Below, piece after piece: positions 11,946 to 33,834 of a stretch of DNA of 33,834 nucleotides. Positions within the stretch are counted from its first letter, which is position 1, and every line of letters begins with the position of its first letter. The notes below the pieces were generated by a model. It saw only the letters and a list, made by a program, of their open reading frames with translations. It had not been told where the DNA came from and ran no database searches. The stretch comes from a virus (Duplodnaviria > Caudoviricetes): IMG/VR virus record IMGVR_UViG_3300042545_001008, positions 1-33,834 of that record. The stretch is one strand, 5' to 3'. The position numbers and the translations under genes were made by a program.

Positions 11946-12200
11946 TCAACGACTTTCGCGCGTGCGCAGAATCTTTTTTGAGCGCTCAGTTTCCCGAGCG
12001 TGCCAGCCCTCCAGCTCGCGCAGCTTTTTCATGGCCTGAATCCACTCCGCACGCTCCGCCGGCGTCTTCGCCTCGTCCTCGTGCATCTCCGCAGCCTGCC
12101 CCGCCAGCGCCGCCAGCTTCTCCTGGAACACGAACCAAGCCGCGTTCTTCGCCAGCGCCGCCAGCCCGTCGAGATAGTCGTCCGGCGATGGCTTGCTCAT
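11946..12200 (-). CDS. Small helical protein after the portal (84 aa)
   Basis: ATGA overlap with the portal stop. Helical-hairpin composition typical of post-portal genes. Confidence 0.6.
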   Translation of the reverse strand: MSKPSPDDYLDGLAALAKNAAWFVFQEKLAALAGQAAEMHEDEAKTPAERAEWIQAMKKLRELEGWHARETERSKKILRTRESR

Positions 12201-15346: not shown

Positions 15347-15347
15347 G

Positions 15348-15608
15348 TTATTCCTCCTTCTCCTTCTTCGCGAAGGCACTCAGCAGCACCGTGTCCGCGC
15401 CCTTGTCCATGTGCGCGCGGGCAAGGATGAGCAGCGAAGGGCAGAGCGCATCCGCGTTCAGCTTGATCCACATATTCCTGCCGCCGTCCTCATACTCCGT
15501 CTGCATCAGCGTCCCGAGACGCCGGTATCGCTTCTTGATCTTGTCGCCCGATTCGTAAGAGCCGACAGGGATGGAGATGTCCCCGAGTTCCGTGGTGATG
15601 TTTGCCAT
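15348..15608 (-). CDS. Small protein, possible PC4-like ssDNA-binding protein (86 aa)
   Basis: VGSYESGDKIKKRYRRLGTL...GRNMWIKLNA resembles small phage beta-sheet ssDNA-binding proteins. The CDS is well supported; the function is tentative. Confidence 0.5.
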   Translation of the reverse strand: MANITTELGDISIPVGSYESGDKIKKRYRRLGTLMQTEYEDGGRNMWIKLNADALCPSLLILARAHMDKGADTVLLSAFAKKEKEE

Positions 15609-15637: not shown

Positions 15638-18600
15638 TCAGCGTTTCCCGTTCAGCATCGCCTTGCGCATCTCGCGCTTGTAATCGCCCTCCTCGCCATG
15701 CACGGCGCGCTCGTAGCCGGCCTTGTCCACGGGCTTGATATTTACGAGCCCGTAGCCGAGCAGCGTCTTCCAGCGCGGGAGCCGGCGGTCATCCGCGGGA
15801 TCCACAAAGGTCGCCGTCGGTTTCCCGTCCTTGTTCACGCCAAAATTCGTCGCGTTCGTGTGCCCCTTGGCCTGCACCTGCGCGAGTTCTTCCACGGCGT
15901 TGTCGAGCAGCTTGGTCTTGATTTTCCCCGCGGGCGGAAGCGTCTTCGAGGCGAACGGCAGGCGGCTCTTGACACCCTCCATCACGCCGGGGTCATACCC
16001 CAGCTTCTCGTTCGGCGTCAGCCGGCGCTGTTGCGGGTCCACCAAGTCCCGCACCATCGAGAGCATCGGTTGCGGCGCCACGCGCGCCAGCGCGAAATCC
16101 GTCGCCATCCCGCCGAGCGTCGTGCTCACGGACTGACTCCCCGTGTACTTGCTTTCGTTCCCGCGGACCTTGTTCACCACCGTCAGCAGGATGCCCTCGC
16201 TCACCAGGTCGCCCGCAAACTCCCGCCACATGTTCGCAGCCTCCGTTTGCAGCCCGCGGGCGTGCGCCTTGTCCGCGCCCAGCGCATCCAGCGACGTGGC
16301 CGTGGCGAGCAGCACGGATGCGTAAGGAATCTGCCGCGTGCGCAGCCAGTAGGAGTCCCCGTCCTTCTGTTCGCCAAACATCCTCGCCAGCGCCCGTGTC
16401 GCCGTACCGAGCACCGGAATGTCGGAAATGTCCATCCGGCTCGAAGTGTCGAATGCCCGGTCCATCCGCTTGCCCGCCTGGTCAAAGCTACGCCCCAGCC
16501 GGTCCACCCGGTCCTTGTCATCGTCTCCGCCGCCGCGCCCGAGGTGCAGAATCGCGTATGCGGCCGCCTGCATCAGCGTAAACGTCCCGAGGTTCGCGAT
16601 GGAATGCGCCAGCTTGGGATTCATCTCCGGCACTCCGCGCTCCTCCGCCGCGGCCTTCATCCGCTTCCCGGCCTCGGTGCCCGCGAGGAACGGTGCCGAC
16701 GCCAGCTTCGCGCCGAGCCACGTCACCACGTCCGCCGAGCCGCCGCCGAGCCAGCGTTTCGTGTTCCGCATGTAGTTGTAGGCCCATCGGAAATACGGCA
16801 GCACCAGGTTGCGCCCCACGTTCACCACAGGCGTCATGTCCACCGTGCCCACGGCGAAACGGTGCCCAGGGTCGAGCCACCACGGAACGTTGTCGTAATC
16901 CATCGCGTATGCCAGCCCGACCGCGCGCGCCTGCACCATCAGGTCATCCGGCTGCTTGGCGAGCCACGACTGCATCCACTGCATCCGCTGCTTGCGGTTC
17001 GCAAACTTGAATCCTTGTTTCTCCGCATCCTCCGCCGCCACCTCCGCGTGCGCGATGAGGCTGGCAAATTGGAGTTGCTGCTTCGCCCGCGGGTCCATCT
17101 CGCCGAAGCGCGTGAGCTTCAGCAGCGCCGCCGGCACGTTCGCCTGTTTCAGATGCTCCCATGCCGTCATCTTCGCTTCCGTCATGGACTGCGCCGCTCC
17201 CGCAATCTGCGAGTTCCCTTCCGAGTATTCCATCGGGGCCACGGCATCCATCATCCGCCGACGCGCCGGAATGAACCAGCGGTTCGTCACGATGCCCTTG
17301 GTAAGATTCCACGCCTCCGAGGCCGACACCCGCGCCGCCTGCGGGTCCGCCTTGCGCAACAGGAGCGACACCTGCGCCTGTTGAATCAGCCGCATCCCCT
17401 TGAACACTTCGTTGCCGACGAAATTCATGAACGCCGTTGAGGGCCGCACGAGGAACGCCGCCACCGCGGAGCGAGTCATCGAGGCGAAGAACCGCATGAT
17501 GGCACTGCCCGATTGCGTCGCCGCCATCGGTCGCACCAGCGCCGCGAACACTTCCTTGCGCATCATCTTGTTGCCCGTCAGATCCTGCCACGCCTTGCCG
17601 CACAGCTTGCGGAGCGCGTCCATGTCCTGCGTCGCCACGGCATTCGTCCACTTCACCAGTTGCTCCTTGCTCATCCCCATCGCCGCGCCATACGCCTGCG
17701 CGAGCTGCGGCAGCGCGTGCGTGTTCACCGCCATCCAGCCCGAGGGCACGCCGCCGACCGCGGGAATGTCCTTCACCGCCAGCGGAATCAGCCGCTCGGC
17801 CATCTCGCGCCGCGACCGCTCCGCGTGCGCTTCCATCGCGCGGATGGCGAAGCCCTCGAAAAGATTCTTCACCTCGCCCGTCTCGCGCGCCTGGCCGCTC
17901 TTGTATTCGCGCGCGCCGCTCTTGAAATTCTTGTTCAGCAGGTTCGTCACCCCCTGCCCGATCATGCCGGCGAGACTGCGCGTGCGCTGGATCTCCGGCA
18001 CGTAGCCCTCCACCGCGTCCAGTTCCCCGTGCGGTGACACTTCCCCGAAGAACTTCCGCAGCGCGTGCCGGTTGAACTCCGGCAGCACCGTCCCGCGGGA
18101 ATCCGTCACCCTGGCGTCCGCCATGTCCGGCGAGATCCAGAGCGTGAGGTAATGCCCCGCGCCGTTGAACCGCTCCATAAACGTGTCGTAAATCTTCTGC
18201 TGACGCTCCGGCGAAAGCTCGCGGAGGAGCTGATACCCGCCCGCGTCCTCGATGTAGTTCCCCACCTTCAGGAACTCCGTGCCGCGCTCCAGCCATTGCC
18301 CGGTGGTCACGCCCGAGGCTTCCGCCTGGTTCTTGAAGATGATGCCCGCGCGCTGGTCGAAGGTCGAGAACGTCGGATTGCCGTCCACATCCACGCCCGT
18401 CGCATTCAGCCGCGAAGCCGTCGGCAGCAATTCCGCCGCGAACTGCTTGAACAGCGCCTTGCCCTTGCCGCCATGCACCGCGTCGAGCCCGGCCCGCGCA
18501 TCCGCCAGCATCCGCTCCATCATCTCGCGCGTCGCCGCCGCCGCCTTCGCCGCGCGAATCTCGCCGGCATCCACCGCATCCTTCGTCCCCGGCGCACCGC

Positions 18601-21600
18601 GCTCCATCGCATCCTTCCATCCTTTGAAAAGGAACGAGTAAATGTCGCCCATCACCGACAGCTTCTCACCCGGCATCATCGTCCCGCCCGGCGTCGGCGG
18701 ATCCAGCTTCTTCAGCGTCGCCTCGCGTTCCCGCGCAATCTGAGCCTGGTCCAGCGCCGACTCCACCAGCACCCCGCCCACACTCATCCCCTGCCCCGCG
18801 CCCAGCGAGGAAGCTTCCGCGTGCTTGGCAAAGAGCGCACTCCCCTGCGTCCGCTGCTGCGTCTTGAGGGCTTCGGGGATGGCGAGGGAATGGACGGAAA
18901 CTGTTCCCTCGGGAACATTGCGGCGCTCGCGCATGTAGCGTTCATTGTTTTCCTGCGAACCGCGGAGACTATTGCGCGTCAGAAAAGCCTGGTAAGATTC
19001 GGTGGTGAATGAGTCCTTGTCAGGAATCTCCGCCCTCCCCGCCTTCACCCCAAACTTCTTCGCCAGATCGTTCGCGATGGACGGGAGCATCTGGTCATAG
19101 ACGCGCTTCAAGCCTTCGCCGCCGACTTTGAGATCGCCTCCCGAGAGTCGTTTCAGTTCGGCCACGCCTGAACCTTCGCCCGCCACGATCTTCGCGGTCA
19201 GTTCCTTGCCGACAATCTCCGCAAGTTGGTCGGCGGTCTGATTCTGCTTTGCCATCACGCTGCGCCCGTCGCGCTCCACGTCAATGTTGTAAGTCCCCGG
19301 AGTGAATCCTGGGCTGTGAAACACGGCATCCACCTGCTTGCTCAGGTCATACCGCTCCGCCTGCTGCTCGCCAGTCGTCCAGGCAATCGCGTCCGCGCCC
19401 TCGTCCACGGCATCGCGCAGCGCCCGCTTCATGCCGATCTCGTAGATGCGCTTGCGCAGCTCCGGCGGCATCTTCTCCTGCTCGCCCTTCCCCGGCCCCT
19501 GCATCTCCTCGATGAAGTAGGTCCGCCGCCCCTCCGCGTCCGTGCGAATGTTGCGCCGGAAGCGGACGATGGGATTTGCGATGTCCGAGTATTGCGAGTG
19601 GCCGTCGCGCCAGTTCTTCCCGAGTCCTGCATCGAACTTCGCAACCTGCGCGCGATAAGTCGGAAACTCTCTATGCAGTTCGTCCCTTAGCTCGGTTGGA
19701 TTCCACGTCCCGCTGTAAAGGTGGTTATTGAGTTCCACGTCCCGCTGCGCTGGCGTGACGCTGCCGTGAATCATTGCAAGTTCGTCGTCGAACGCTGCTG
19801 CCAGCTTCGGGTTTTTACGCTCCAACTCGGCAAAGGTGACGTGCTCAATCGCGGGCGCGGTCTGCTTCGGCCACGTCACAAACATCTCCCGATAGCTCCC
19901 CTCGTCCGCGCCGGGGAGTTGGTATTGCGAGAAGTGCGGACTCGCTTCATCTTTTGAAAGAGCATCTTCCCGCGCCACCTCCTTCGTAGTCATATCTCGC
20001 CGCCAATTTGAGCGCCCGTATTTCGCGATCATTTCTGAACGAAAATCGGTCAGCGATTGCAGCACCACATCCTGCACCGTCGCCTGCCGTTGCAGCGCGT
20101 AGCCCGTCAGTTCCGCCTTCGTCACCTTCTCGCCCGGATGCTTTCCAGCCAGCGGGGAAAGCGGATCCTCTAGGATGCCGCTCCGCGCGATCTCATCCTT
20201 CTTCGCGCCTTTCTCAATCGCCGCCCGCGCCTGCTGCACCGTCATCGTCTCCTGAGGCAAAGCCTGCACCGTCCTGGTAAGCGCGGAGTAGAACGCCGGC
20301 ACCGGATCCACCGGCTTCGCCAGCAGCACCCCATCCGAGTCCACGCCCTTGAAGCCGGCGCGCTGCATGATGGCCTTCACCGCGGCCCGCGCCGTCTGCG
20401 CCACCTTGCTGATGGCCTGCTTGCTCACGCCCTTCTCCTCCGCGATGTCCTCCATCGTCCGCCCTTCCATGAGCCCGAAAAGAATGCTGCGCGGATACTC
20501 CGGCAGCTTCGCAATCGCCGCCTGCATCCCCTCGCGCGTCTCCCGGTCCTCGATCGGGCGAGTCACCTCGTCCGCCCCGTTCCGGCTCACGTTGTCCTTC
20601 CAGGTCTCCCCTGTCTCCGCGTCTAAGGTGGCCACCTCCGCCCGCGCCTGCGCGCCTTCGCCCGTGAACATCGAATTGAGCGAATTGCGGATCGCCCGCG
20701 CCGCATAGTTCCCAAACGGCCCCTTGTCCGGCTGCCACCCGCGCGCCGCCTTCACCAGCGCCAGCCGCGCCTCGCTCACCACATCCTCCATCGGAGCCGT
20801 CACATTCGAGTAACCCCGCGCAATGCTCACCGCCAGCCCAAGATTGTCCTGCACCAGTGCGGTGAGGTTGAGAGACGCCGTGCGCAGCCGTCGGCCGTCC
20901 GCTCCGTTCCACTCTGCAAGAGCCGACGCGCCGTCACGCTGCCCGGCGCCGGATTTGGCGAGCAGCGCGCCACTCTGCCGGTCATCCTTTGCCACCGGCT
21001 CGCCGTTCTTGTGCGTGATCTGGATCTTCGCCTCGTCGAAGATGACGTAGTTGTAGGTGCGGCCATTCCGTAATTCCTCAACATGCCTTTCCGCCGCCGC
21101 TTTTGAATCAAACGAGCCGAGCCCGGTGTTGTTCTTCCGATCCAAAGCCACCCACGATCCCGATGCGCCCGACACGATCTGAATATCATCACTCACCGCA
21201 GGAATGCCCCTACTCCCATGGTCGAGAAATCGAATGCCGGGGATGCCGAGAGAGGCGAGCTTGGCGGATGCGGCCTGAAAGTCGTTGTAACCGCCGCGCA
21301 GACCGTCTGATGGTCGAACGCCAGACCGTGCTGCAAGACGGTTATAAAACCCCGCGCCGGTTCGCGGCTTGTTGTAATGGCTTACCCCGTCCGCTTCCAG
21401 CACTGGCCCGTCAGTCAATGGAACGGATTGCAACGTCCTCCGCACCTTCCCACTCTGCTCACTCAGCGGCTTGTCCCAATCCAGCAGTTCATCCGGCTCC
21501 ACGTCGAGCGAGACGGTGTAGGTGTTGCCGACCGCCTCCGACTTGTCCAGTTCTTGCAACAGTGGAGCGGGCACCTCTGAGCGCATCTGTTGCGCCAGTC

Positions 21601-24600
21601 CGCCCCCGCCTTTCACGAAGCTCGCCAGCGACTCCACATCCATCCCATGCACCCGTCCGATCACCGCCTCCCGGCCGTAGTGCTCGCTGAACATCCGCCG
21701 GGCCTCATCCGTCGGGCGAAACCGCTTCAGGTCACTGCGTCCCGCATGGCGGTAGGACTGTGCCACTTCGGGATTCTCCGCGAAGTAAAGCCCCCACCCG
21801 TACGCCTGCGCGCCCTCGCCGGTGCCAATCTTCTCCAGCCTGAAATTGTCCACTTCATGCGGCGTCCCGTGGAACGCCACCTTCGCCAGCAGCACCCCGC
21901 CGCTCTCCTCCAGCGCCTCATGCAGCGCCGGGTTGCGCGCGGCCTCCATCACTCCGCTATGTGCAGCCGAGCCACCACTTGCGGTGATGGCATCGATCGG
22001 ACGCACCCATACGTCCTTCATCGCGGCCTTGAACTCATGGATCATCGTGGTTTCGCGTGCGGAAAACTGCGTGCTCCCCGGAGCGGCAGTCTTCGCGGGG
22101 AATGAAAGGATGGCACCGTAGGCCGCGCCGCCTGCCGCCTCGCGGGCGATCACGCCCATGTCCGCATCCACGGGATAGCGATGCGCAGCGATCAGCTTCA
22201 GCTTCGTGTCGAGGTGCAGGACGTGCAGGTGGTCCGGATCTGCGGTTTTCAGCGTCCGCATGATCGCAGCCGCCGTCGGGCCCTGCATCAGTTCGCGGCG
22301 CGTGTGCGCTGCCACTGCCTCCCAATCCGCGAGCGCCGGCCCGTCGGGCTTGTCCAGCTTCGGCAGCCGGTAGTCCTTATCACCAGGAAAGGCATTTGGA
22401 CGCTCGGACAGCTGTCCAGATTCGAGAAACGAAAAGAACCGCCCGCCGTTGGTAATGACGTGATCCAGAAGCGGTGTCCCGATGCGCCGCCCGGCTTCCA
22501 TCGCCTTGTCCGTCGCATTCAAATCGGCGTTACTCGGATCCGGGTCGCCGCTGGGATGATTGTGCGCGAGCACAAACCCGGAAATCGGCACGCCTGGATT
22601 CAGCCGGCGTGCTTCCTCGATGATGCCCGCAATCTCGCGCGGCGTCATCACCGTTTCATTCAGCGCGCCCACGGTCATGATCTGCGAGTGGATCACCTGC
22701 CGGTTGTTGTCCAGCACCGCGATCTTCGTGGACTCAAAGAACGGCGTGCGCTGCATCATGCAGAACGCCGCAAGGTCTGCCGGCGATTGAATCACCGCAC
22801 CCCGAATGTCGAACGTCGGGATTTTCCGGCTGACAAAATCCGAAAGGATGGACGACATCGGCACCCCGTCGGCGATGCCCTTGCGCACCGCCTCCGCGTC
22901 ACCGGTCGTCAGTCCATGATAAACGCCGGCCTGGGCTGCCCGCTGTCCTGCGAGGTTCCGATCCACTCCTCCGCCGGCTGATACTGCATCCGCTCCACGG
23001 GCGTAACCTTTCCCTTGCACGGCCTGTGCCTGCGCGATGGCCTTGATTGCTTCCGGTTGGAGGGCTTTCGGGACATCGGCATGGTCCAAATAACCCTGCA
23101 CCGCCCCCGGTGTCAATGCCGGTGCGCGGTCCCACAGGCCCAGCCCGGCCGTCGCAAAATCCCCGCCGAAATCCCCCTGCTTCGGGTCGTGCTTCGCCAG
23201 CAGCGCGCCGCCCTGCGGAACATGCTCGGCCACCCGGATGTCGATTGGCGTCAGCGTTCCGGTCGCTGGATTCTTCTTCCAATTCTTCGGCGAGGCGTCA
23301 GTGACAGCAAGCCCGTGCCCGACATAGACGCCGTGCGTCTTTTCAGATTTCTTCGGAAATCCCCTCGCCTTCATCCATGCGTCAATCTCCGCCTCGATAG
23401 GATTCGGGCCTTTGATGTATGGCTGGCTGATCACCAGTGCGAGCCGATGGCTTTCGGGATAAAAAGTGATGCCCTCCAATTTTTCACCCCCGCCGAAAAC
23501 GGCATCACTGAGTGCCATCCGCTCTAAATATTCGAGCGGGAATTGCGGCTTGTCGAGCGTCACCTTGCCGACACGATCCCCAAACTCCTTAAAGAAAACC
23601 CTGTGCTCTACCCCGCCGTCATCCTCCTTGCGACCGGCAAACTTCTGAGGCGGGATTACCCGCTTGTTTTTGACAGCCCACTCAATGAGTGCTCGTCGCT
23701 CTGCTTCGTCAGAAGGGAGGCTCTGTTCCTCTGCGATTCTTCCCGCATTTCCTGCAACGTGGGCGTAGGCATCCTGAGAAACTCCTCCCTCGCCTCGTGA
23801 AAGGTCAACAAGGGCTTGGCGGACTCTGGCTGCTGTTTCGCGCTCATGCCGTGACTCATACCCGCCTTTCCCCTCGCGGTCAACCTTCGCAAGCAAACTC
23901 CCTTGCATCTGCCCCGCAGCCTCGCGTTCCACAGGCTCACCGTTCCGGTGCGTGATGCGGATCTTGCCCTCGTCGAAGATGACGTAGTTGTAGGTCTGCG
24001 CGCCTTGCATTTCACGCAAGGTTCGCTCTGCAATCTCTTGCGTTGCATACGGTCCCGACTTGTAAAACTTCGCTGCCGTGACAATCACCCAACCATCGCC
24101 AGCCGCATCGGGTTGAACGCTCAATGCGCCTCCAGTAGCGCCGATTCCCCTGCTCCCCTGATCCAGATACCGGATGCCGGGGATGCCTGCTTTTTGCAGT
24201 TGAGTCGAGGCGTACCGGCGTGCGTCAACTTCCTCGTCATTAGAATCCTGCAAGGCGCGATAGGCGTCACTTCCAGGCTGCTCTATTTGCTTTTCACCTA
24301 CCGGCATTCCAAATGCCCGCGCAAGCGCACGCCGCACCTTCTCACTCTGCTCACTCAGCGGCTTGTCCCAGTCCAGCAGTTCATCCGGCTCCACGTCGAG
24401 CGTCACGGTGTAGGTGTTGCCAGCAGGCGCGCTCGATACGGGATTCGTGCGTTGAGAGGACACCAGATCATAGACCCGCTGGAAACGGTCCCGCTCCCGG
24501 CTCTTTGCTGCCGTTTGGCGCAACCATGAAGCCGCGGTGCGCTTTGCCGCAGCGATGTTTCCGCCATTGAGCGTGAACGCGATCGCGGCCTGCGCCTCGA

Positions 24601-27600
24601 TGCTGCCAGTTTCAATCGCCCTGCCGTTCCATACGTGATTGTCGCCCGGAAAGCGGCCGTCTCTGATTTGTTGTTTCGTGCTTAGGGTGTTCCGATACTC
24701 CTCCGCCACCGCTTTGTTCTCCGCGAAGTAAAGCCCCCAGCCATACACCTGCGCGCCCTCACCCGTGCCAATCTTCTCCAGCCTGAACGCATCCACTTTA
24801 TGCGGCGTGCCGTGGAACGCCACCTTTGCAAGAAGGCTGCCGCCTTCTTCCTGCACCATTTTCGCAAACAGGCTCCCCTGCTCCTGCCCCGGCGCAAACT
24901 TGCCCACGCCGCCCTTCGCCGCATCAAAAAGCGGCGTCTCCCCGCCGCCAAACATGTCCGCAGTCGTGTCCCCCGCATTGGCCCCCTTGAACTTCGCCGC
25001 CTTCTCCGCTTGCAGGATCGCCAGCGCATTCGCCGCACGCTGCTTCCCGGCCAGTGTCTTCTCTGAATCCCCAGCCGCAGGCTTCACCGCTTCCGGCAGC
25101 GCCAGCGTCCCCTGTGCAGACTGAATCTCCGCAATCTTCCGCAGCAGCGCCGCGCACGCCTTCGCATCCGTCACGATCTTTCCATTCAGCTTCGCGACCT
25201 CCGCCGCTGGCCCGCCAAACAGCGAATCCCCGGACTGCATGAGATGATTCCGCTGCATGATGTTCCTGTTCATCCGCGCGCGAATCGTGTCGAGCGCATC
25301 CCTCATCCGCACCCCAACCGGCCCGAGCACCGCGTCATCCTCCACGAGCGACTTCAGCAGCGGCACATCGCCGCGCGCCGGCACCATGCCAGCAATCAGG
25401 TCCGCCTTTTCCGCCAGCCGTCCAGCGTCACGCAAGAATGCAGCCTCGGCATCCGCTGCCGCGCGCCGCTGCGTCTCAGCCTCCGCCTGCTCTGCGAATG
25501 CGGAAACAGCCGGCGTCGCGACCTCCCCGCCAAACTCCCTCTGGTTCGGGTTCTGCTTGGCAAGCACCGCGCCCTGTCCCTCGTCCTCACCTTGCTCCGC
25601 GGGCTCAATCTTCGCGTAAATCGTCTCCCCGCTGTACACGTCCTGAATCCCATACGTGTCGCCATCCTCCAGCGTCACCTGATCGGCCGCCACCGCGATG
25701 ACCTTGAGCTTCGTGCCGGCCACTTCCACCTCGTCCCCGATTGCCAGCGTGCCGTCTTCGGGGCGGATGAGCTGCGTGCCCGCCGCGGGTTTCGCGGCAT
25801 CCTGCTTGAAGTCGGCATCCTTCGCCTGCTGCTCCGCTGCGTCGCGCTCGTGGGCCAATGCCTGCGCCTCGACCGCGAGTCGCGTCTGAAACGCCCCGGC
25901 CAGCGCCACGAGCATTGTGTCCACATGCGCGTCGGCAATCAAGTTCGCGTCAGCCATCATCTGCGCCGCCTCGTCCAGCGCCACGCCTTGCCCGCGCGCA
26001 GCAAACAGGCCCGCGCGCAGGCGCTCGGGGAGGTATCCGACCCCATCGTATTCCCCGCCAATGCGTTTGCTGACCAGTTTGAAAAAGTTCGTCCCGTCAA
26101 CGTCCCTTGTCAGCTTCCCGCGGTTCTTCATCTCGCGGTCAAACGCCGTCCCACGCGACCGCAGTTTGCCGATGTCGTTCAGTAGAAAATCAATCGCGTC
26201 CTCCCCGCCAGGCGAGGGCGGAAGTTCCCGCTGTCGGCGCTTAAATTCACGCCGCTGCTTCAGTGCCTCCTGCTTCGGCGTCAGCGGTTTGTCCGGCTGC
26301 ACCGCAGGCGTAGGTCCCGCATTTTCCGCATTTTCCGCACCCTGGGCGTTGGGCGTTGGGCGTTGGGCGTTGGGCGTTCCCGCCACCGCCGCCGCCAAGT
26401 CTTCCCCCTCCACATCCGTCCCGCCCTTCTCAAACCATTTCGCCATCGTCGCGCGAACTTCCCGCCCCAGCTTCGCCATCTCCGAGGCATGAAGCGGGTG
26501 CCCCATGTCGAGCAGCTTCGCCGCCAGCCGCTTGATCGCATCCACCGCCGACCGCACCCACTGCCCGAGCTTGCTGGAGCCGAAAAGTTTCCACGTCTCC
26601 TCGGTCAGTTGCTTCTGGTTCAGCATCCGGTCCAGCTCCATCGCAAACGCCCAATCCGCCGCGAAGACATCGGTTCCGTCTTCCTGCGTCCCAATTTGGA
26701 TGCCGTCGGCAATTTGCTGCATCGCCTCGTCCAGCGTCTTCGCCCGGCCTGCCGCGGACTGCAAGTCCCCGTAGTACACATTGAACGCCCCGAGCACCGC
26801 ATCCGTCGCGTCCTGGCGTTCCGCAGGGTCCGCGATCGTCGCGATGCGTGTCTTCAAATCCTCCAGCGCGCCGCGCATCCATTGGGCTCGGTATTGGTCC
26901 GCCGTCCCGGTGAATGTTCCCGCCTGCTTCTCAGCCCGATACATCTCCAAAAGCGCCTGCCCTCCGAAGAAATGCCAGATTTCCTCATCCACCGCCGCAT
27001 TCGCATGGTCCCCGCTCTCGAACTCTGCCGGGTTGAGATGGATGGAAAGCTTCTCGCCATCCAAATGCGCAAGCGTCGAGCCGGCAGTCTGCTTCACCGT
27101 CACACCCGCGCGCTCCAGCGCCGCCAGCCGTTTTCCGGCCTGCCCGTTCTTCCCTAAGCCGGTGTAGAATTTTGCCCCGCTTGCGCTACTTGCGATTCCA
27201 GCCGCCGCCGCACCCGTCGGGCCGCCGCCTTGGCCTCCACTCGCGCCAGAAGCTCCTCCCTGCGCGCCTCCCGCGTTCCCTCCTCCGCCGGAGGCTTGCG
27301 CAGCGGATGACCCTGCTCCGCCCAGTTGATTGGTTTGCGAAACACCCGAGGCACCAGCCTGTCCACCTCCGCCTTGCGGTTGGCCCGCAGAAGCTGCTTC
27401 GGCATCAGATGGCGGGGAATTTTCATCTCCCACAGCAGACGCCGAACCCGCCCCGCCGTCAACCGCCACCGGAGTGATTTTTTGAATCGTCCACCCCGGC
27501 CCCTTCCGCTTCGCCACATTCGCCCGCGCCGCAGCTTCATTCCCGCCCGGCACCGGAAAGTTCGCCACGTTCCCCTGCGCATCCACCGCCTCCACATTCC

Positions 27601-30600
27601 AAGTCCCGCCAGTCGAAGCCGCGGCCGCATTCCCCCCTTGGACGTTGGGCGTTGGGCGTTGGGCGTTGGACGTTCCCGCCGCCCCGCTCCGAGCCGCCGC
27701 CCGGCGTACAGCCTCCCCGGCCGCAGCCGTCACCCGCCTCGTGGCATTCACCAAAATGTCCAGCCCTTGGTCCGCCAACCTCAAAGCATGGTTTGCAGAC
27801 TCCATCGCCCCGCCCGTGATCACCACATTGAACTTCGCCGGAGCCGCCACAATCGCCTTCCGCAGCGCCGCCGGCAACAGCGGAACCGCCTGCTCCGTCA
27901 CGACCAATCGCCCGTCTTCCGCCTGCGCCACCAGTCCGAGTTCCGCCAGCTTCGCAGCCTTGTCCGGCGCGAGTTGCCGACCCTTCTCTGCCACATCCGC
28001 AAGGTCGCGCGCCATCGCCGCCCCCACATGCGCGTTGATTACCGCCTGCCCGAGTCCTTCGCTCTCGTTGTCAAAGCCGCCCTCCCTTTCCACGATCATC
28101 TTCGCCGCCTGCTGCTTGTTGCCAGGCAGCCAGATGTCCCTGCCTTCCGCTCCCATCGCCACCGCAGCCACTTGCAGATGCGGATTGCTGGAAAGTGCCG
28201 GAGCCAGCGCACGGCTTTCGACCCCAATCAGGTTCCCGAGATTCCGCGACGCAGCCGACGACACCGCCAGCAGCCTGCCAGTCTCCTCATGGATGGCATC
28301 CAGCGCCGTGCCCGCCGCACCCTGCGCCACACCCATCGCCACTGGATCGTTGGATTGGTTCGCCGCATCCAGCGTAGTCCTCGCCGCATCCAGCGCCTCG
28401 TGCATCGCCTCCCATCGCCCAGCCATTGCCCTGCCACCCTTGGGCCGGTTCCAACGGTCGGTGATGGTTCCAAGCAGGGCACCGCCGAGGCCGATCATCC
28501 CTCCAGACCCCACCAACGATTCCGCCCAGCCATCGAACGGGCTCTGCCCCTGCATCATGTTTTGCCCCACGTCTGAAGCCATTTCTCCGCCGCCCAAGCC
28601 GGCCATGCGCCCGGCGAATTTCCCCGCCGACTGTGCCCACGGGCTCTTGCCCAGCGTTGAAAGTTTGTGCGCCACTTTTTCTCCGAGGAAATCGCCCCAC
28701 CTTTCCGAAAGCATCAGCGGCACACCCTCACTGGCAATGTCCGCCAGCCGGTTGAATGCGCCCATGCTCCGGTCACTGCCCTTCATCGAGATGTCCGTGC
28801 CATACATTCCACCCGTGATCCCACCGCGCGTCAGGTTCAGCGCCATCGCGCTTTCCACGCCGCCAGCAGCCAGCCGGGCCTCCGCCAGCCTTCCGACCAG
28901 CCCGGCACACATGAAAGAAAGCATGGAGCCGCCACCCGCGGCGATGACATTGATCCAATGCAGCTTGTCATCCACCACCTTTGCCAGCTTCTCGGATAGA
29001 AACGCGCGCTGCGCCACTTCTTGCGGATTATTCTCATCCACTTCGATATTCCCGGCACCTACGCCAATCAGTGCTTGATAAAATGCGTTCCCGGTAGCCG
29101 TCGCCTGCGCACCGAATTTCCCGGCTTCCAGTTCCCGGATCAGCGACTCAGCACCGCCCAGCGTCAGATTCAGGCTCATCAGCGCAGCCTTTTGCTTACC
29201 GCTGCCTAGAAGTCGGAGGCGCTGATTGCCGTCATCCATCGTCACCCACGACGCCTTGCCGTCCGCCACCGCCTTCTCATGCGCCGCCCGCTGCTCCGCA
29301 CTCATCACACTCTTTCCGGCCTCCCACTGCTTTTCCATCTCCGGCCACGCTTTGAACACCTGTTCCGCTCCGGCAGCATCCAGATTCCCGATCAGTTGCT
29401 GTGCGGCCTCTGCCTCCCTGGTCCTCATCACTTGCGCCGCCGAGCGCCCCAGCGTGAAGCGGGTAAGTGTGGAAGCGATTCCGCCCAGCGTCGAGTTCGT
29501 CTGCGCCATGAACCGCTTGAAGCCGTGACTCGATCCATCCGCCTTTTCCTGCGCCTCAATCTTCGCGATGTCCTCCCGCAGCTTCGACTCCCGCTCATGG
29601 ATCGTCACGATCGCCTCGTCCAGATTCGTCAAGTCCTTCAACGCTTGTCCCCATTGCCCGCCGAAATTATTCTGCTTTCCGCCCACATCCCGCGCCTCCA
29701 CCAGCTTTTCCGCAGCTTGTCGCAGCGCCCTCTTTGCGTCGCGCTGAGTTTCATGCGACGCATTCACGTTCGCAATGTCGCGTTGCAGTTGGTTCAGCGG
29801 CACTTCCAGCGACACCTTTCCGACTTCCGGCACGGCGTCAGGCCCGGCAAGGTCGAGGTTTCCGCCACGCGCCAGCGCGGCCTTTGCGCGCTCGTACATC
29901 GCATCCGCACTCTGCCCATCCACCATCGGCGACACCTTCCGCGCCGCGTCCAGTGCCAACACCGTGCCCTCCAGCACACTGCCGCCGGAACGCCCGGCCC
30001 ATTCGTTTGCCTTGCTCGAAATCTCAGCCGCCGCGATCCCCATCGTTTCGCTCGCCGCCCATGCTTCCGGCGTCTTGAAGGTATCCAGCAGTTTCGCGTG
30101 CGCAGCCTTTGCTGCCTCGCGCGCCGCCGCCAGCGGCTCATTCACAGCCGCCCGCGCCTTCACAAACACCTGCTCCACCTTCTGCCAGTCACCCGCGCCT
30201 TCCGGTGCAAGCGCCGCATCCGCAAACGCCTTACGCCGGGCTTGGCTGATCGCCGCCAGCTTCGGCTCCGCCGCCTCATGCGCCGCATCCAGCGCGAGCG
30301 AAGCATCCCGCACCTCGCCGGCCAGCTTCGTAAATCCCATTGCCTTGACAGCCGCCTGCCTCACCCCCTCATCCGCCGCAGCTACCCGCGCCTCCAGTTC
30401 CGGCACCTTCGCCGCCACTTCGGGTTTCAGCAGCGCCTTGTCCCGCAGCGTGGTCAGGTCTTCCACCGCTTTCGCGCGCGCTCCCTGTGCCGCTTTCAAT
30501 TCTCCTAACACCCCGTCCCTCGTTTCCTCGAACTGCACCATCATCGGCGCAGTCGCCGTCTTCGGCGCATACCGGGTTCGATTCAGCAATTTCAGGTTCG

Positions 30601-31786
30601 CTGCCTTCTCCGCCGTGTCCTTATCCAGCGCATTCTTGAGGTCGTTCTGCTTCTTGATTGCGAGATCCAGTGCGTGAACCGCGGAAGCCGGCCCTCGATA
30701 CGCCGCATCCGCCGTATCAAATTCGGCTTTCCGCGCCTCCAGAGTCTGCTGCACAATCGGCTCCACCTTCCCTCCATTTGCCAGCGCCAAGTTTTCCACG
30801 TTCTTGCGTGCCGCATCATAGGCCACCTTTGCTTTGTCCCGGGACGACTTCAGCGCCGAAAATGGAATGCCGTCAGCAGCATCCGTGACGTTCCCACTGG
30901 CATCGTAAAGCTGCTTGGTCGCCTCGAATGCACGCTGATCCTCCATCCGCCGCAGTTCCACACGCGCCTTGTCGTGCTTGGCGCGGAGTGAATCAACTTC
31001 CAGCGTCGCCTCCTGCCGCTTCTGCCAGTGCTCATCCACCCCGATGTCATGCCTCACACCATCTTCCTCGTAATACCGCTCCCCGGTTTCGGCATCCCGG
31101 TGCAGCTTGCCCTCGTGCTCCAGGTCTTTCGGGATTGGATCCCCGTTCTCCGGCTGGTAATCCCTCACCCACCGCCCGCTCTCCGCGTTGTAATACGATT
31201 TTCCGATGAAGCCCGCCGTCTTTTTCAACGTGCCGTCATCGTTCAGCGCCACCGTTTCGGTTCCGTCCGGTGCAACCGTCGTCTGGACGCCAGTGCTCTT
31301 GAGATATTTGAGCCGCCCCGCCTCCGCCTTCTTCTGCGCAGCCATCCCGGCCGCCGCCTCACGCCGCCCAGCCACGTCCGCCGCCCGCGCCTGCCGCTGT
31401 TGCGCCGCAGCCTGGCGCTCGGCATCCCGCTGTTGCGCCGCAGCCTGGCGCTCGGCATCCCGCTGTTGCGCCGCAGCCTGGCGCTCGGCATCGCGCACGC
31501 CCTGCTCGGCCACCGACACGTTCAGCCGCGTCGCCTGTTCATCGGTCATCCCCTCCGGCCTGCCAATCGCACCCATCGCCGCCAGCTTTTCCAGCCGTGC
31601 AGAATGGTTTTCTCCAGTCTCACCCGGAAGGGCATCGGGGCGGAATGCCGCGTCAAACTGGTTCGCCGGCATCGGCCTCGGCGAAGGCGTTGGCGCATCC
31701 GCCACCGCATCCTCCGGGTTCACATTGGGTTCGTCCGGGTTAAGTTCGTCCGGGTTGAGGTCTTCGGTGTCAGGAGGCCATGCCAT
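15638..31786 (-). CDS. Giant polyvalent protein, probable internal virion/ejection protein (5382 aa)
   Basis: Uninterrupted 16.1-kb ORF. Coiled-coil and Gly-rich hydrophobic N-terminal part, a central string of enzymatic modules (listed separately), helical C-terminal ~1060 aa. Lies in the morphogenesis region. Confidence 0.9.
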   Translation of the reverse strand: MAWPPDTEDLNPDELNPDEPNVNPEDAVADAPTPSPRPMPANQFDAAFRPDALPGETGENHSARLEKLAAMGAIGRPEGMTDEQATRLNVSVAEQGVRDAERQAAAQQRDAERQAAAQQRDAERQAAAQQRQARAADVAGRREAAAGMAAQKKAEAGRLKYLKSTGVQTTVAPDGTETVALNDDGTLKKTAGFIGKSYYNAESGRWVRDYQPENGDPIPKDLEHEGKLHRDAETGERYYEEDGVRHDIGVDEHWQKRQEATLEVDSLRAKHDKARVELRRMEDQRAFEATKQLYDASGNVTDAADGIPFSALKSSRDKAKVAYDAARKNVENLALANGGKVEPIVQQTLEARKAEFDTADAAYRGPASAVHALDLAIKKQNDLKNALDKDTAEKAANLKLLNRTRYAPKTATAPMMVQFEETRDGVLGELKAAQGARAKAVEDLTTLRDKALLKPEVAAKVPELEARVAAADEGVRQAAVKAMGFTKLAGEVRDASLALDAAHEAAEPKLAAISQARRKAFADAALAPEGAGDWQKVEQVFVKARAAVNEPLAAAREAAKAAHAKLLDTFKTPEAWAASETMGIAAAEISSKANEWAGRSGGSVLEGTVLALDAARKVSPMVDGQSADAMYERAKAALARGGNLDLAGPDAVPEVGKVSLEVPLNQLQRDIANVNASHETQRDAKRALRQAAEKLVEARDVGGKQNNFGGQWGQALKDLTNLDEAIVTIHERESKLREDIAKIEAQEKADGSSHGFKRFMAQTNSTLGGIASTLTRFTLGRSAAQVMRTREAEAAQQLIGNLDAAGAEQVFKAWPEMEKQWEAGKSVMSAEQRAAHEKAVADGKASWVTMDDGNQRLRLLGSGKQKAALMSLNLTLGGAESLIRELEAGKFGAQATATGNAFYQALIGVGAGNIEVDENNPQEVAQRAFLSEKLAKVVDDKLHWINVIAAGGGSMLSFMCAGLVGRLAEARLAAGGVESAMALNLTRGGITGGMYGTDISMKGSDRSMGAFNRLADIASEGVPLMLSERWGDFLGEKVAHKLSTLGKSPWAQSAGKFAGRMAGLGGGEMASDVGQNMMQGQSPFDGWAESLVGSGGMIGLGGALLGTITDRWNRPKGGRAMAGRWEAMHEALDAARTTLDAANQSNDPVAMGVAQGAAGTALDAIHEETGRLLAVSSAASRNLGNLIGVESRALAPALSSNPHLQVAAVAMGAEGRDIWLPGNKQQAAKMIVEREGGFDNESEGLGQAVINAHVGAAMARDLADVAEKGRQLAPDKAAKLAELGLVAQAEDGRLVVTEQAVPLLPAALRKAIVAAPAKFNVVITGGAMESANHALRLADQGLDILVNATRRVTAAAGEAVRRAAARSGAAGTSNAQRPTPNVQGGNAAAASTGGTWNVEAVDAQGNVANFPVPGGNEAAARANVAKRKGPGWTIQKITPVAVDGGAGSASAVGDENSPPSDAEAASAGQPQGGGGQAGASGVSQTNQLGGAGSSAAQASGGGGNAGGAQGGASGASGGQGGGPTGAAAAGIASSASGAKFYTGLGKNGQAGKRLAALERAGVTVKQTAGSTLAHLDGEKLSIHLNPAEFESGDHANAAVDEEIWHFFGGQALLEMYRAEKQAGTFTGTADQYRAQWMRGALEDLKTRIATIADPAERQDATDAVLGAFNVYYGDLQSAAGRAKTLDEAMQQIADGIQIGTQEDGTDVFAADWAFAMELDRMLNQKQLTEETWKLFGSSKLGQWVRSAVDAIKRLAAKLLDMGHPLHASEMAKLGREVRATMAKWFEKGGTDVEGEDLAAAVAGTPNAQRPTPNAQGAENAENAGPTPAVQPDKPLTPKQEALKQRREFKRRQRELPPSPGGEDAIDFLLNDIGKLRSRGTAFDREMKNRGKLTRDVDGTNFFKLVSKRIGGEYDGVGYLPERLRAGLFAARGQGVALDEAAQMMADANLIADAHVDTMLVALAGAFQTRLAVEAQALAHERDAAEQQAKDADFKQDAAKPAAGTQLIRPEDGTLAIGDEVEVAGTKLKVIAVAADQVTLEDGDTYGIQDVYSGETIYAKIEPAEQGEDEGQGAVLAKQNPNQREFGGEVATPAVSAFAEQAEAETQRRAAADAEAAFLRDAGRLAEKADLIAGMVPARGDVPLLKSLVEDDAVLGPVGVRMRDALDTIRARMNRNIMQRNHLMQSGDSLFGGPAAEVAKLNGKIVTDAKACAALLRKIAEIQSAQGTLALPEAVKPAAGDSEKTLAGKQRAANALAILQAEKAAKFKGANAGDTTADMFGGGETPLFDAAKGGVGKFAPGQEQGSLFAKMVQEEGGSLLAKVAFHGTPHKVDAFRLEKIGTGEGAQVYGWGLYFAENKAVAEEYRNTLSTKQQIRDGRFPGDNHVWNGRAIETGSIEAQAAIAFTLNGGNIAAAKRTAASWLRQTAAKSRERDRFQRVYDLVSSQRTNPVSSAPAGNTYTVTLDVEPDELLDWDKPLSEQSEKVRRALARAFGMPVGEKQIEQPGSDAYRALQDSNDEEVDARRYASTQLQKAGIPGIRYLDQGSRGIGATGGALSVQPDAAGDGWVIVTAAKFYKSGPYATQEIAERTLREMQGAQTYNYVIFDEGKIRITHRNGEPVEREAAGQMQGSLLAKVDREGKGGYESRHERETAARVRQALVDLSRGEGGVSQDAYAHVAGNAGRIAEEQSLPSDEAERRALIEWAVKNKRVIPPQKFAGRKEDDGGVEHRVFFKEFGDRVGKVTLDKPQFPLEYLERMALSDAVFGGGEKLEGITFYPESHRLALVISQPYIKGPNPIEAEIDAWMKARGFPKKSEKTHGVYVGHGLAVTDASPKNWKKNPATGTLTPIDIRVAEHVPQGGALLAKHDPKQGDFGGDFATAGLGLWDRAPALTPGAVQGYLDHADVPKALQPEAIKAIAQAQAVQGKGYARGADAVSAGGGVDRNLAGQRAAQAGVYHGLTTGDAEAVRKGIADGVPMSSILSDFVSRKIPTFDIRGAVIQSPADLAAFCMMQRTPFFESTKIAVLDNNRQVIHSQIMTVGALNETVMTPREIAGIIEEARRLNPGVPISGFVLAHNHPSGDPDPSNADLNATDKAMEAGRRIGTPLLDHVITNGGRFFSFLESGQLSERPNAFPGDKDYRLPKLDKPDGPALADWEAVAAHTRRELMQGPTAAAIMRTLKTADPDHLHVLHLDTKLKLIAAHRYPVDADMGVIAREAAGGAAYGAILSFPAKTAAPGSTQFSARETTMIHEFKAAMKDVWVRPIDAITASGGSAAHSGVMEAARNPALHEALEESGGVLLAKVAFHGTPHEVDNFRLEKIGTGEGAQAYGWGLYFAENPEVAQSYRHAGRSDLKRFRPTDEARRMFSEHYGREAVIGRVHGMDVESLASFVKGGGGLAQQMRSEVPAPLLQELDKSEAVGNTYTVSLDVEPDELLDWDKPLSEQSGKVRRTLQSVPLTDGPVLEADGVSHYNKPRTGAGFYNRLAARSGVRPSDGLRGGYNDFQAASAKLASLGIPGIRFLDHGSRGIPAVSDDIQIVSGASGSWVALDRKNNTGLGSFDSKAAAERHVEELRNGRTYNYVIFDEAKIQITHKNGEPVAKDDRQSGALLAKSGAGQRDGASALAEWNGADGRRLRTASLNLTALVQDNLGLAVSIARGYSNVTAPMEDVVSEARLALVKAARGWQPDKGPFGNYAARAIRNSLNSMFTGEGAQARAEVATLDAETGETWKDNVSRNGADEVTRPIEDRETREGMQAAIAKLPEYPRSILFGLMEGRTMEDIAEEKGVSKQAISKVAQTARAAVKAIMQRAGFKGVDSDGVLLAKPVDPVPAFYSALTRTVQALPQETMTVQQARAAIEKGAKKDEIARSGILEDPLSPLAGKHPGEKVTKAELTGYALQRQATVQDVVLQSLTDFRSEMIAKYGRSNWRRDMTTKEVAREDALSKDEASPHFSQYQLPGADEGSYREMFVTWPKQTAPAIEHVTFAELERKNPKLAAAFDDELAMIHGSVTPAQRDVELNNHLYSGTWNPTELRDELHREFPTYRAQVAKFDAGLGKNWRDGHSQYSDIANPIVRFRRNIRTDAEGRRTYFIEEMQGPGKGEQEKMPPELRKRIYEIGMKRALRDAVDEGADAIAWTTGEQQAERYDLSKQVDAVFHSPGFTPGTYNIDVERDGRSVMAKQNQTADQLAEIVGKELTAKIVAGEGSGVAELKRLSGGDLKVGGEGLKRVYDQMLPSIANDLAKKFGVKAGRAEIPDKDSFTTESYQAFLTRNSLRGSQENNERYMRERRNVPEGTVSVHSLAIPEALKTQQRTQGSALFAKHAEASSLGAGQGMSVGGVLVESALDQAQIAREREATLKKLDPPTPGGTMMPGEKLSVMGDIYSFLFKGWKDAMERGAPGTKDAVDAGEIRAAKAAAATREMMERMLADARAGLDAVHGGKGKALFKQFAAELLPTASRLNATGVDVDGNPTFSTFDQRAGIIFKNQAEASGVTTGQWLERGTEFLKVGNYIEDAGGYQLLRELSPERQQKIYDTFMERFNGAGHYLTLWISPDMADARVTDSRGTVLPEFNRHALRKFFGEVSPHGELDAVEGYVPEIQRTRSLAGMIGQGVTNLLNKNFKSGAREYKSGQARETGEVKNLFEGFAIRAMEAHAERSRREMAERLIPLAVKDIPAVGGVPSGWMAVNTHALPQLAQAYGAAMGMSKEQLVKWTNAVATQDMDALRKLCGKAWQDLTGNKMMRKEVFAALVRPMAATQSGSAIMRFFASMTRSAVAAFLVRPSTAFMNFVGNEVFKGMRLIQQAQVSLLLRKADPQAARVSASEAWNLTKGIVTNRWFIPARRRMMDAVAPMEYSEGNSQIAGAAQSMTEAKMTAWEHLKQANVPAALLKLTRFGEMDPRAKQQLQFASLIAHAEVAAEDAEKQGFKFANRKQRMQWMQSWLAKQPDDLMVQARAVGLAYAMDYDNVPWWLDPGHRFAVGTVDMTPVVNVGRNLVLPYFRWAYNYMRNTKRWLGGGSADVVTWLGAKLASAPFLAGTEAGKRMKAAAEERGVPEMNPKLAHSIANLGTFTLMQAAAYAILHLGRGGGDDDKDRVDRLGRSFDQAGKRMDRAFDTSSRMDISDIPVLGTATRALARMFGEQKDGDSYWLRTRQIPYASVLLATATSLDALGADKAHARGLQTEAANMWREFAGDLVSEGILLTVVNKVRGNESKYTGSQSVSTTLGGMATDFALARVAPQPMLSMVRDLVDPQQRRLTPNEKLGYDPGVMEGVKSRLPFASKTLPPAGKIKTKLLDNAVEELAQVQAKGHTNATNFGVNKDGKPTATFVDPADDRRLPRWKTLLGYGLVNIKPVDKAGYERAVHGEEGDYKREMRKAMLNGKR
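18845..20314 (-). other. Unassigned module of the giant protein (FYSAL...YREMFV...FIEEMQG...AWTTGEQQAERYDLSKQV)
   Basis: Bounded by GVLLAK and GSALFAK. I recognise the motif series from other large phage proteins but cannot name the family. Confidence 0.55.
20333..20953 (-). other. Sigma-70 family module (regions 2 and 4) of the giant protein
   Basis: Region 2: LVQDNLGLAVSIARGY...EDVVSEARLALVKAARGWQPDKGPFGNYAARAIRNSL. Region 4 HTH: IAKLPEYPRSIL...GRTMEDIAEEKGVSKQAISK. Confidence 0.85.
20972..21880 (-). other. ADP-ribosyltransferase-like module 2 (ART-PolyVal-like)
   Basis: AFHGTPH...IGTGEGAQAYGWGLYFAEN...LLDWDKPLSEQ...GIPGIRFLD...YNYVIFDE. Confidence 0.75.
21899..23191 (-). other. RadC-like JAB module followed by a degenerate second JAB-like copy
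   Basis: Intact AHNHPSGDPDPSNAD (core at 22523-22564), upstream E...VLDNNRQVI, downstream LLDHVI. The second lobe (HLHVLHLDTKLKLI...VRPIDAI) lacks the HxH ligands. Confidence 0.85.
23210..23884 (-). other. Ser/Thr/Tyr kinase-like module (Kinase-PolyVal-like)
   Basis: GGVEHRVF, VGKVT, EYLERM, VISQPYIKG, catalytic DASPKN, and PID. Confidence 0.75.
23903..24823 (-). other. ADP-ribosyltransferase-like module 1 (ART-PolyVal-like)
   Basis: AFHGTPH...IGTGEGAQVYGWGLYFAEN...LLDWDKPLSEQ...GIPGIRYLD...YNYVIFDE. Confidence 0.75.
26344..26378 (-). repeat. AACGCCC x5 heptamer array in a linker of the giant gene
   Basis: gggcgtt x5 on the plus strand. Encodes TPNAQRPTPNAQ. Confidence 0.95.
26425..27170 (-). 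other. Zincin-like metallopeptidase domain with an EExxH variant motif (approximate bounds)
   Basis: Beta-strand LSIHLNP followed by helix AAVDEEIWH (EEIWH at 26972-26986) and a distal Glu in FAMELDRM (26636-26638). Confidence 0.5.
27640..27674 (-). repeat. AACGYCC x5 heptamer array in a linker of the giant gene
   Basis: ggacgtt, gggcgtt x3, ggacgtt on the plus strand. Encodes TSNAQRPTPNVQ. Confidence 0.95.
31394..31492. repeat. Perfect 3 x 33-bp tandem repeat encoding DAERQAAAQQR
   Basis: ccgctgttgcgccgcagcctggcgctcggcatc x3. Confidence 0.95.
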
Positions 31787-33216: not shown

Positions 33217-33834
33217 TCACCCCGCGCGCCGCCGCTTCCGCGTCCGATACCGCGCCGCGCCGTCAATCAGATACGCCCCCATCGCGAGCGCGAGAACATC
33301 GTCGTCGTGTCGCCCGTGCGCCGCCGCGAACCGCCCGCGCTTGTCCCGCACGAACGTCTCCAGCTCCTCGACGATGTGCATGTCCTCAATCTCCATCCCT
33401 GGCACCCATTCCTTCTTCCCGTCGTCGCGCTCCACTTCCATCCCATGCACCAGCGATTGCAGCCTCGTGATAATCGCGTGCCGCGTCTCCTCGGTCTGCG
33501 AGAACCCAAGCTGCTCCGTGACTTTCTCAGTCACCCGCGTGAGGATCTGCTGACGATACAGGTTCAGCCCCGCGCGCTTCGCGCCGACGACCACCCACTC
33601 CCCCTTGTTCGTCTCCACCACGAGCGTGCAGTTGCCATACCAACGGCACAGCATCGCCAGCACGTAGAGGAACACCCGCTCCGTCGGATGATGTTCGAGC
33701 ACTTGCCACATGATGCGCGCCACCACGCGCGGCCTGCGGTGCAGCACCTTGCCATCGGGCAACACCGTGTCGTCCCCCGCGCGCAGCACGAGCACGCTCG
33801 AATTGTCCAAGTCGCCCTCGCCATCCGTCACGTC
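33217..33834 (-). CDS. terL: Terminase large subunit, C-terminal RNase H-like nuclease domain (5' part outside the window)
   Basis: EGDLDNSSVLV, YGNCTLVVETN, GLNLY, LGF, ELETFV, AAHGRHDDDVLALAMG. Confidence 0.9.
   Translation of the reverse strand, partial: DVTDGEGDLDNSSVLVLRAGDDTVLPDGKVLHRRPRVVARIMWQVLEHHPTERVFLYVLAMLCRWYGNCTLVVETNKGEWVVVGAKRAGLNLYRQQILTRVTEKVTEQLGFSQTEETRHAIITRLQSLVHGMEVERDDGKKEWVPGMEIEDMHIVEELETFVRDKRGRFAAAHGRHDDDVLALAMGAYLIDGAARYRTRKRRRAG

Follow-up and report, generated by a model that had tools for sequence, protein, structure and literature searches.

The window analysed here is a single phage contig of 33.8 kb (33,834 nucleotides; IMG/VR record IMGVR_UViG_3300042545_001008, Caudoviricetes). 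On its minus strand lies a giant gene (15638..31786), delimited by open reading frame (ORF) call, translation and domain search, whose 5382-residue product is the subject of this report. According to an original prediction made from the letters of this DNA, nine copies of a short peptide divide the protein into effector modules and may be the sites at which it is cleaved. Translation reproduced all nine motifs (9/9) on the minus strand and in the frame of ORF 15638-31786. The motif lysines fall at residues 2077, 2309, 2321, 2634, 2865, 3302, 3611, 3824 and 4321 and set segments of 232, 12, 313, 231, 437, 309, 213, 497 and 1061 residues, again as predicted.

The protein begins with a region (residues 1-1534; 27185..31786) that contains no motif copy, matched no family and is collinear with its homologues. 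It has Gly-rich hydrophobic stretches at residues 945 and 1090, and we infer that it may act in ejection or at the membrane. A gluzincin-like (MPTase-type) domain follows (residues 1535-1800; 26387..27184), which is the candidate processing peptidase and contains EEIWH (residues 1601-1605; 26972..26986), an EExxH form of HExxH, and a distal Glu1717 (26636-26638). Motif 1, GAVLAK (25556..25573), ends at K2077. The module behind it (residues 2078-2309; 24860..25555) has no assigned function and no homologue within the fetched set, and it ends in motif 2, GSLFAK (24860-24877); a 12-residue spacer (24824..24859) then ends in motif 3, GSLLAK (24824-24841). An ART-like module 1 (residues 2322-2634; 23885..24823) closes with motif 4, GSLLAK (23885-23902), a Kinase-PolyVal module (residues 2635-2865; 23192..23884) with motif 5, GALLAK (23192-23209), and a RadC/JAB module (residues 2866-3302; 21881..23191) with motif 6, GVLLAK (21881-21898). 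ART-like module 2 (residues 3303-3611; 20954..21880), 41% identical to module 1, ends in motif 7, GALLAK (20954-20971), and the sigma-70-like module (residues 3612-3824; 20315..20953) in motif 8, GVLLAK (20315-20332). Module X (residues 3825-4321; 18824..20314), which has no assigned function, ends in motif 9, GSALFAK (18824-18844), and is followed by a conserved, motif-free C-terminal domain (residues 4322-5382; 15641..18823) that defines the family.

The module labels of the original prediction held in part. Kinase-PolyVal (34 bits, cut-off 27), RadC/JAB (94 bits) and Sigma70_r2 (44 bits) scored above their Pfam cut-offs, whereas the two ART-PolyVal matches (28.2 and 27.2 bits) remained under the cut-off of 31.2 bits and cover only the first 45-49 residues of their modules. 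The description of the modules as seven host-takeover enzymes was therefore too strong, given that a sigma factor is not an enzyme, that residues 2078-2309 and 3825-4321 are so far without function and that the ART matches are below cut-off. None of the Pfam matches extends across a motif, and those to ART begin with the third residue behind the lysine, so that the motifs do lie at domain boundaries and not inside domains. In phage phiGT1 a gene by itself encodes a relative of the ART module; in vir555 such a relative forms part of a protein with a zincin, between the flanking peptides QFQA and RFQL. Another 593 large proteins contain relatives of module X, which has a conserved IEE-x-Q motif; no Pfam, PHROG or NCBIfam model matched it, and its Atlas matches stayed under 0.9. 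Its structure model is poor (predicted local distance difference test, pLDDT, 43.5, with 3 sequences in the alignment), which makes a PDB search on it meaningless. Searching with a profile of the C-terminal domain yielded 152 relatives, so that the family comprises at least 152 clusters and no isolate.

The junction motif and its versions in relatives

The pattern G-x(1,2)-[LV]-[LF]-A-K occurs at 9 distinct sites in the giant protein (12 overlapping matches), whereas 2000 shuffled sequences gave 0.13 on average and never more than 3. The most over-represented 4-mer of the whole protein is LLAK, with 6 occurrences where 0.28 are expected. Because the pattern was chosen post hoc, we applied a rough correction, in which a Poisson probability of ~2e-14 multiplied by ~3e8 patterns of the same shape gives ~5e-6. 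Alanine and lysine are kept in 9/9 copies and position -3 is Leu in 8/9; the residues upstream of the copies are rich in Gly, Gln and Glu. No strict copy was found in residues 1-2070, in residues 4322-5382 (both expected from the original prediction) or in the other five frames, and the 21 other ORFs of the window (5629 residues), including those for the capsid, the portal and a candidate scaffold, contain 0. The claim that codons vary while the peptide is conserved was also borne out: 52/122 same-residue pairs among the nine copies share a codon (0.43), compared with 0.48 +- 0.09 from the codon usage of the gene. Codon identity is thus no better than chance, and conservation therefore acts on the peptide. 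We also considered an assembly artefact and rejected it, since unitigs of run X1, possibly the source sample of the window, pass through 9/9 motifs, which are therefore not assembly joins; loose contig ends from four runs showed no pile-up at the motifs among those listed.

Relatives of the protein carry junction peptides of their own, which we recognised by eye. These include xMKR (P0003), L[AG]APVP (P0007), L[FA]AD (P0004 and P0005), L[FYL]AS (P0008), [FY]SV[QE] (L003 and L004), [FY]ALDP (P0068 and P0072), LMMAP (P0019) and L[SA]AKP (P0045), and distant relatives, whose forms include FSL, FSVQ and LSAKP, retain the same hydrophobic-hydrophobic-small shape. Absence of a recurring boundary motif from homologues with other module sets had been named beforehand as a result that would speak against the prediction; such motifs do recur. 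Homologous sigma, ART, JAB and X modules take the end motif of the protein that holds them, and the sigma module ends, according to its host protein, in VLLAK, ILMKR, GLAAPVP, SLMMAP or VLYAAK. Judging from these peptides, the junction motif is a property of the protein or lineage and not of the module, and there is no fixed LLAK.

Two pattern-free tests of junction likeness gave the same picture. In the first, covering 14 family members, 35 junction windows and 29 pairs, with the window protein and two close relatives left out, likeness within proteins was 15.5 as against 13.5 +- 0.5 after permutation (p=0.0008; shifted control p=0.74). In the second, independent test, 33/120 proteins found through module X had at least 2 usable junctions, and the 43 within-protein pairs of different module types scored 13.8 as against 12.0 +- 0.4 (0/3000 permutations, z=4.6; controls p=0.74 and 0.30). 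A generic pattern was modestly enriched at the ends of BLAST matches in 56 held-out proteins (z 1.9 and 2.3), and a narrower one, written after those proteins had been viewed, gave z 2.2 and 3.4.

Module exchange at the motif

The original prediction did not extend to two properties of the motif: it is lineage-specific, and it is also the point at which modules are exchanged. Two close relatives (P0002 and L005) have C-termini 93-97% identical to that of the window protein. P0002 (6881 residues, C-terminus 97% identical) has the sigma, JAB and C-terminal blocks in common with the window protein, and each of these begins or ends at LLAK. The order of modules is JAB-ART2-sigma-X-C in the window protein, helicase-sigma-JAB-C in P0002 and helicase-JAB-sigma-X-C in L005, the helicases of the last two being 96% identical. 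The limits of the blocks shared with P0002 and L005 fall at the motif. These alignments show the motif to be a point of module exchange between relatives. Compared with P0002, the peptidase-like domain is 51-56% identical, the N-terminal region 30-35% and the C-terminal domain 97%, and the two ends of the gene therefore have different histories.

One explanation that these data bring up is that the motif is a mere recombination joint or insertion scar at short DNA homology, and that the peptide has no job. Breakpoints do fall within the motif, and two motif copies of L005 share 29 identical bases spanning it, a recent identity, so that DNA recombination does use the joint. In addition, P0005 has a doubled motif where P0004 holds a module between two copies, which suggests that the 12-residue spacer of the window protein (24824..24859) is a deletion scar, likely that of a lost module, and the G+C content at third codon positions ranges from 0.62 to 0.87 among the modules. 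However, conservation of the nucleotides beyond the protein level, which is the feature of a DNA recombination site, is lacking: the codons of the nine copies are randomised while Ala and Lys are invariant, and selection on the peptide is therefore needed. Distant relatives also retain the hydrophobic-hydrophobic-small shape. We therefore consider a scar without function very improbable.

The candidate peptidase and the fate of the chain

The AlphaFold model of residues 1535-1800 (pLDDT 79) consists of a helix, three strands, the EEIWH helix and a later helix with Glu1717; the same layout of helices and strands has been given for the MPTases of polyvalent proteins (PMC5512222). The domain is a variant and not a textbook member of the zincin-like MPTases, since it has EEIWH instead of HExxH, and EExxH is not among the active-site variants in the available text of section 8 of that account (PMC5512222). 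P0029 and P0031 form a sister pair in the tree, one with E and the other with H before ExxH, and EExxH may therefore be regarded as an HExxH variant that keeps the general-base Glu. A [HE]ExxH motif in a hydrophobic context occurs in 84/120 module-X proteins, as against 6.6 in shuffled sequences. Fold searches with the model gave no PDB or BFVD match at E<=0.001 and no Z score above 5: the best Foldseek row was MATCAP (E=0.13), the VIA zincins scored Z 3.5-4.0 and thus under unrelated rows, and the best BFVD rows, at E 0.04-0.05, included polyvalent proteins. The Atlas matches of the domain are unnamed, with one cluster carrying LPD23 in 18%. A predicted complex of residues 1535-1790 with zinc and a 35-residue double-motif linker scored 0.00, with about half of its alignment rows misaligned, and speaks neither for nor against cutting. 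By sequence, the EEIWH domain is a plausible peptidase of the gluzincin type.

We propose, with the chances about even, that this candidate zincin cuts its own chain at the motif and frees some seven modules after packaging or ejection. The giant protein would travel in the head and leave it together with the DNA, unfolded or loosely folded. The in-protein zincin, active with Glu as its first metal ligand, would then cut either in cis or in trans, once the protein has been ejected or while it refolds. Some seven modules would be released, together with the N-terminal and C-terminal parts, which are motif-free and would serve packaging and ejection. Gluzincins such as thermolysin favour a hydrophobic residue at P1'. 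Because of this preference and because the ART fold begins right after the lysine, the scissile bond would probably precede the two hydrophobic residues. The short stretch of similar DNA that the copies share would double as a crossover point, which would account for the shuffling of modules.

More tentatively, and with the balance tipped slightly against it, the same may apply to tailed DNA phages in general. As a polyprotein strategy, every polyvalent protein would be equipped with a short cutting code particular to it, which a fast-evolving zincin of the same protein (here EExxH) reads and which is fitted to each captured module, so that the code is at once a release signal for injected effectors and a shuffling joint.

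Several observations weigh against processing by the in-protein peptidase. Its predicted first metal ligand is Glu and not His. The count that speaks for it, 17 EExxH and 3 HExxH among 20 homologous domains found with an iterated profile, is partly built in because rows were retained only if one of these motifs was present; the distal Glu, which was not selected for and is present in 20/20, remains in its favour. Identity of the peptidase to that of the window falls from 56% in P0002 (LLAK) to 41% in P0003 (xMKR) and 23-25% in P0007, P0008 and L007, but likeness of the C-terminal domain ranks these proteins in nearly the same way, and trees of the two domains, the second of which was a quick tree, are largely congruent or unresolved; co-variation therefore fails to single out the peptidase. 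P0001 and P0002 share LLAK at 51-56% peptidase identity but at 97% C-terminal identity. Several family members have no clear motif at the last junction, and blind motif searches, which were underpowered, mostly failed: anchored 4-mers reached p<1e-3 in 8/54 proteins compared with 9/108 controls, among 50 proteins unanchored 5-mers gave a clear motif in only a few and did not recover LLAK even from the window protein, and the motif listing per protein was noisy. In P0004, P0005 and P0006 the ORF with the junction motifs lacks [HE]ExxH. Finally, the virion RNA polymerase (vRNAP) of N4 is packaged unprocessed although it has an HExxH domain (PMC5512222) and is described as a single chain of beads on a string (PMC13434306), and ArdC and TraC1 are transferred at full length (PMC5512222).

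The three ORFs without the peptidase motif begin with MK[IL]LxCFR and are without both the N-terminal region and the peptidase, which suggests that they represent a split gene. They also bear on the possibility that the motif is cut by another protease, either a head or maturation protease of the phage encoded outside the window or a protease of the host. In T4, phiKZ and SPN3US, the head protease cleaves ejection proteins at short sequences that vary from one phage to the next (PMC5694885), and the window contig is partial, at 33.8 kb compared with 81.8 kb in a close relative. However, these head proteases also cut capsid and portal proteins (PMC5694885), and in the part of the genome covered by the window, the capsid, portal, candidate scaffold and every other ORF were free of strict copies. 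The JAB fold is not a general reader of the motif either, since motif-bearing P0003, P0007, P0008 and L001 have no JAB match. The motif is far above chance and confined to one protein, and a dedicated reader therefore fits better than a general head protease; cutting by another protease seems to us quite improbable.

A further alternative is that the motif is never cut and is a binding or pausing signal, by which a packaging, unfolding or ejection factor (possibly the C-terminal domain of the protein itself) handles the domains in turn while the chain stays whole. Hydrophobic-basic hexapeptides resemble chaperone-binding sites, and the motif tracks likeness of the C-terminal domain at least as well as that of the peptidase. 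The vRNAP of N4, unprocessed in spite of its HExxH domain (PMC5512222), has flexibly linked subdomains and is thought to unfold for ejection (PMC13434306). By contrast, a strict, protein-specific pattern of small-hydrophobic-hydrophobic-small-x after a flexible run rich in Gly, Gln and Glu would be more like a protease site, release benefits modules whose targets are in different places, as has been argued (PMC5512222), and the ART module relative of phiGT1 stands alone. We regard an uncut signal as rather unlikely.

Genomic setting and relation to described systems

The neighbours of the giant gene, all on the same strand, are the C-terminal part of a terminase at the window edge (33217..33831), an SU10-type portal protein (12197..14569), the major capsid protein (3401..4987) and an endolysin, and the gene therefore lies in a phage head gene region. 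A DnaQ-like exonuclease gene (14585-15379) sits between it and the portal. The domain sets of relatives (P0002, L005, P0003 and P0007) are mosaic and variable. Judged by these testable features and by its disparate predicted domains, the giant gene encodes a phage-type polyvalent protein. It agrees with described members of that class in its very large size, its position in the virion gene region and its combination of ART-PolyVal, Kinase-PolyVal, RadC/JAB and zincin-like domains (PMC5512222), and it differs from them in its C-terminal domain, which matches no Pfam, PHROG or NCBIfam model.

It was proposed in 2017 that the MPTase processes the polyvalent chain into functional units (Iyer, Burroughs, Anand, de Souza, Aravind 2017; PMC5512222). 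Unlike the present analysis, that account contains, in its available text, no cut-site or junction motif, and the word 'linker' has 0 occurrences there (PMC5512222). No paper found in our literature search describes a repeated junction motif for polyvalent proteins, most subscription papers being outside its reach. Processing by the MPTase is thus an earlier proposal, and what appears to be new here is the junction motif.

As in the prohead-protease processing of T4, phiKZ and SPN3US, where a short phage-specific motif directs the cutting of packaged proteins, a short motif may be read here; in those phages a separate protease trims the propeptides of many head proteins after Glu (PMC5694885). 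The present motif, by contrast, separates the internal domains of a single protein, and neither the capsid nor the portal protein contains it. The giant protein also resembles the vRNAP of N4 and gp47 of phi24B, which are giant packaged or ejected proteins with a metallopeptidase-like domain (PMC13434306; 10.64898/2026.04.10.717836), and gp47 has been detected in virions by proteomics (10.64898/2026.04.10.717836). The vRNAP is packaged uncut, however, and the available text of these sources mentions a repeated junction peptide for neither protein. Giant proteins of Omnitrophota are likewise multi-enzyme and proposed to cleave themselves, but they are cellular and have C39/S8 peptidases, and their cleavage points are unknown according to West-Roberts et al. 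(10.1101/2023.11.21.568195). If the in-protein zincin does cut at the motif, the system would work like MARTX toxins, with their cysteine-protease autoprocessing, and like viral polyproteins, which combine one chain, an internal protease and repeated sites between effector domains. The protease class and the domains are unrelated, so that this would be a likeness of working and not membership.

Since the 2017 proposal it has been an open question whether polyvalent proteins are processed, and at which sites, and the nine-copy motif, a candidate peptidase with named residues and the differing motifs of relatives make processing testable. If it is true, DNA phages would use polyprotein processing at scale, the domain boundaries of unnamed injected effectors such as module X would be marked, and the result would point to a group of sequence-specific proteases that differ in specificity. 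If the general code holds, it would delimit hundreds of unnamed effector domains exactly.

The C-terminal domain had no match among 50,697 phage records, named phages included; no relative was found in GTDB genomes, a single-protein viral scan was likewise empty, and no RNA holder was listed. The runs with the best coverage of the window are lake and freshwater metagenomes. The major capsid protein has a long hydrophobic N-terminus resembling a signal peptide, which is uncommon in capsid proteins. We also observed in-frame (CAACGYC)n heptamer repeats on the minus strand (27641-27668, 26345-26372, 13892-13926 and 12275-12288), which encode T-[SP]-N-[AV]-Q-R-P-T peptides in the giant protein and the portal and have very high depth in lake metagenomes. 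In a GTDB scan with the heptamer repeat, 36 of the first 80 loci listed were named Verrucomicrobia, which gives a weak hint of the host.

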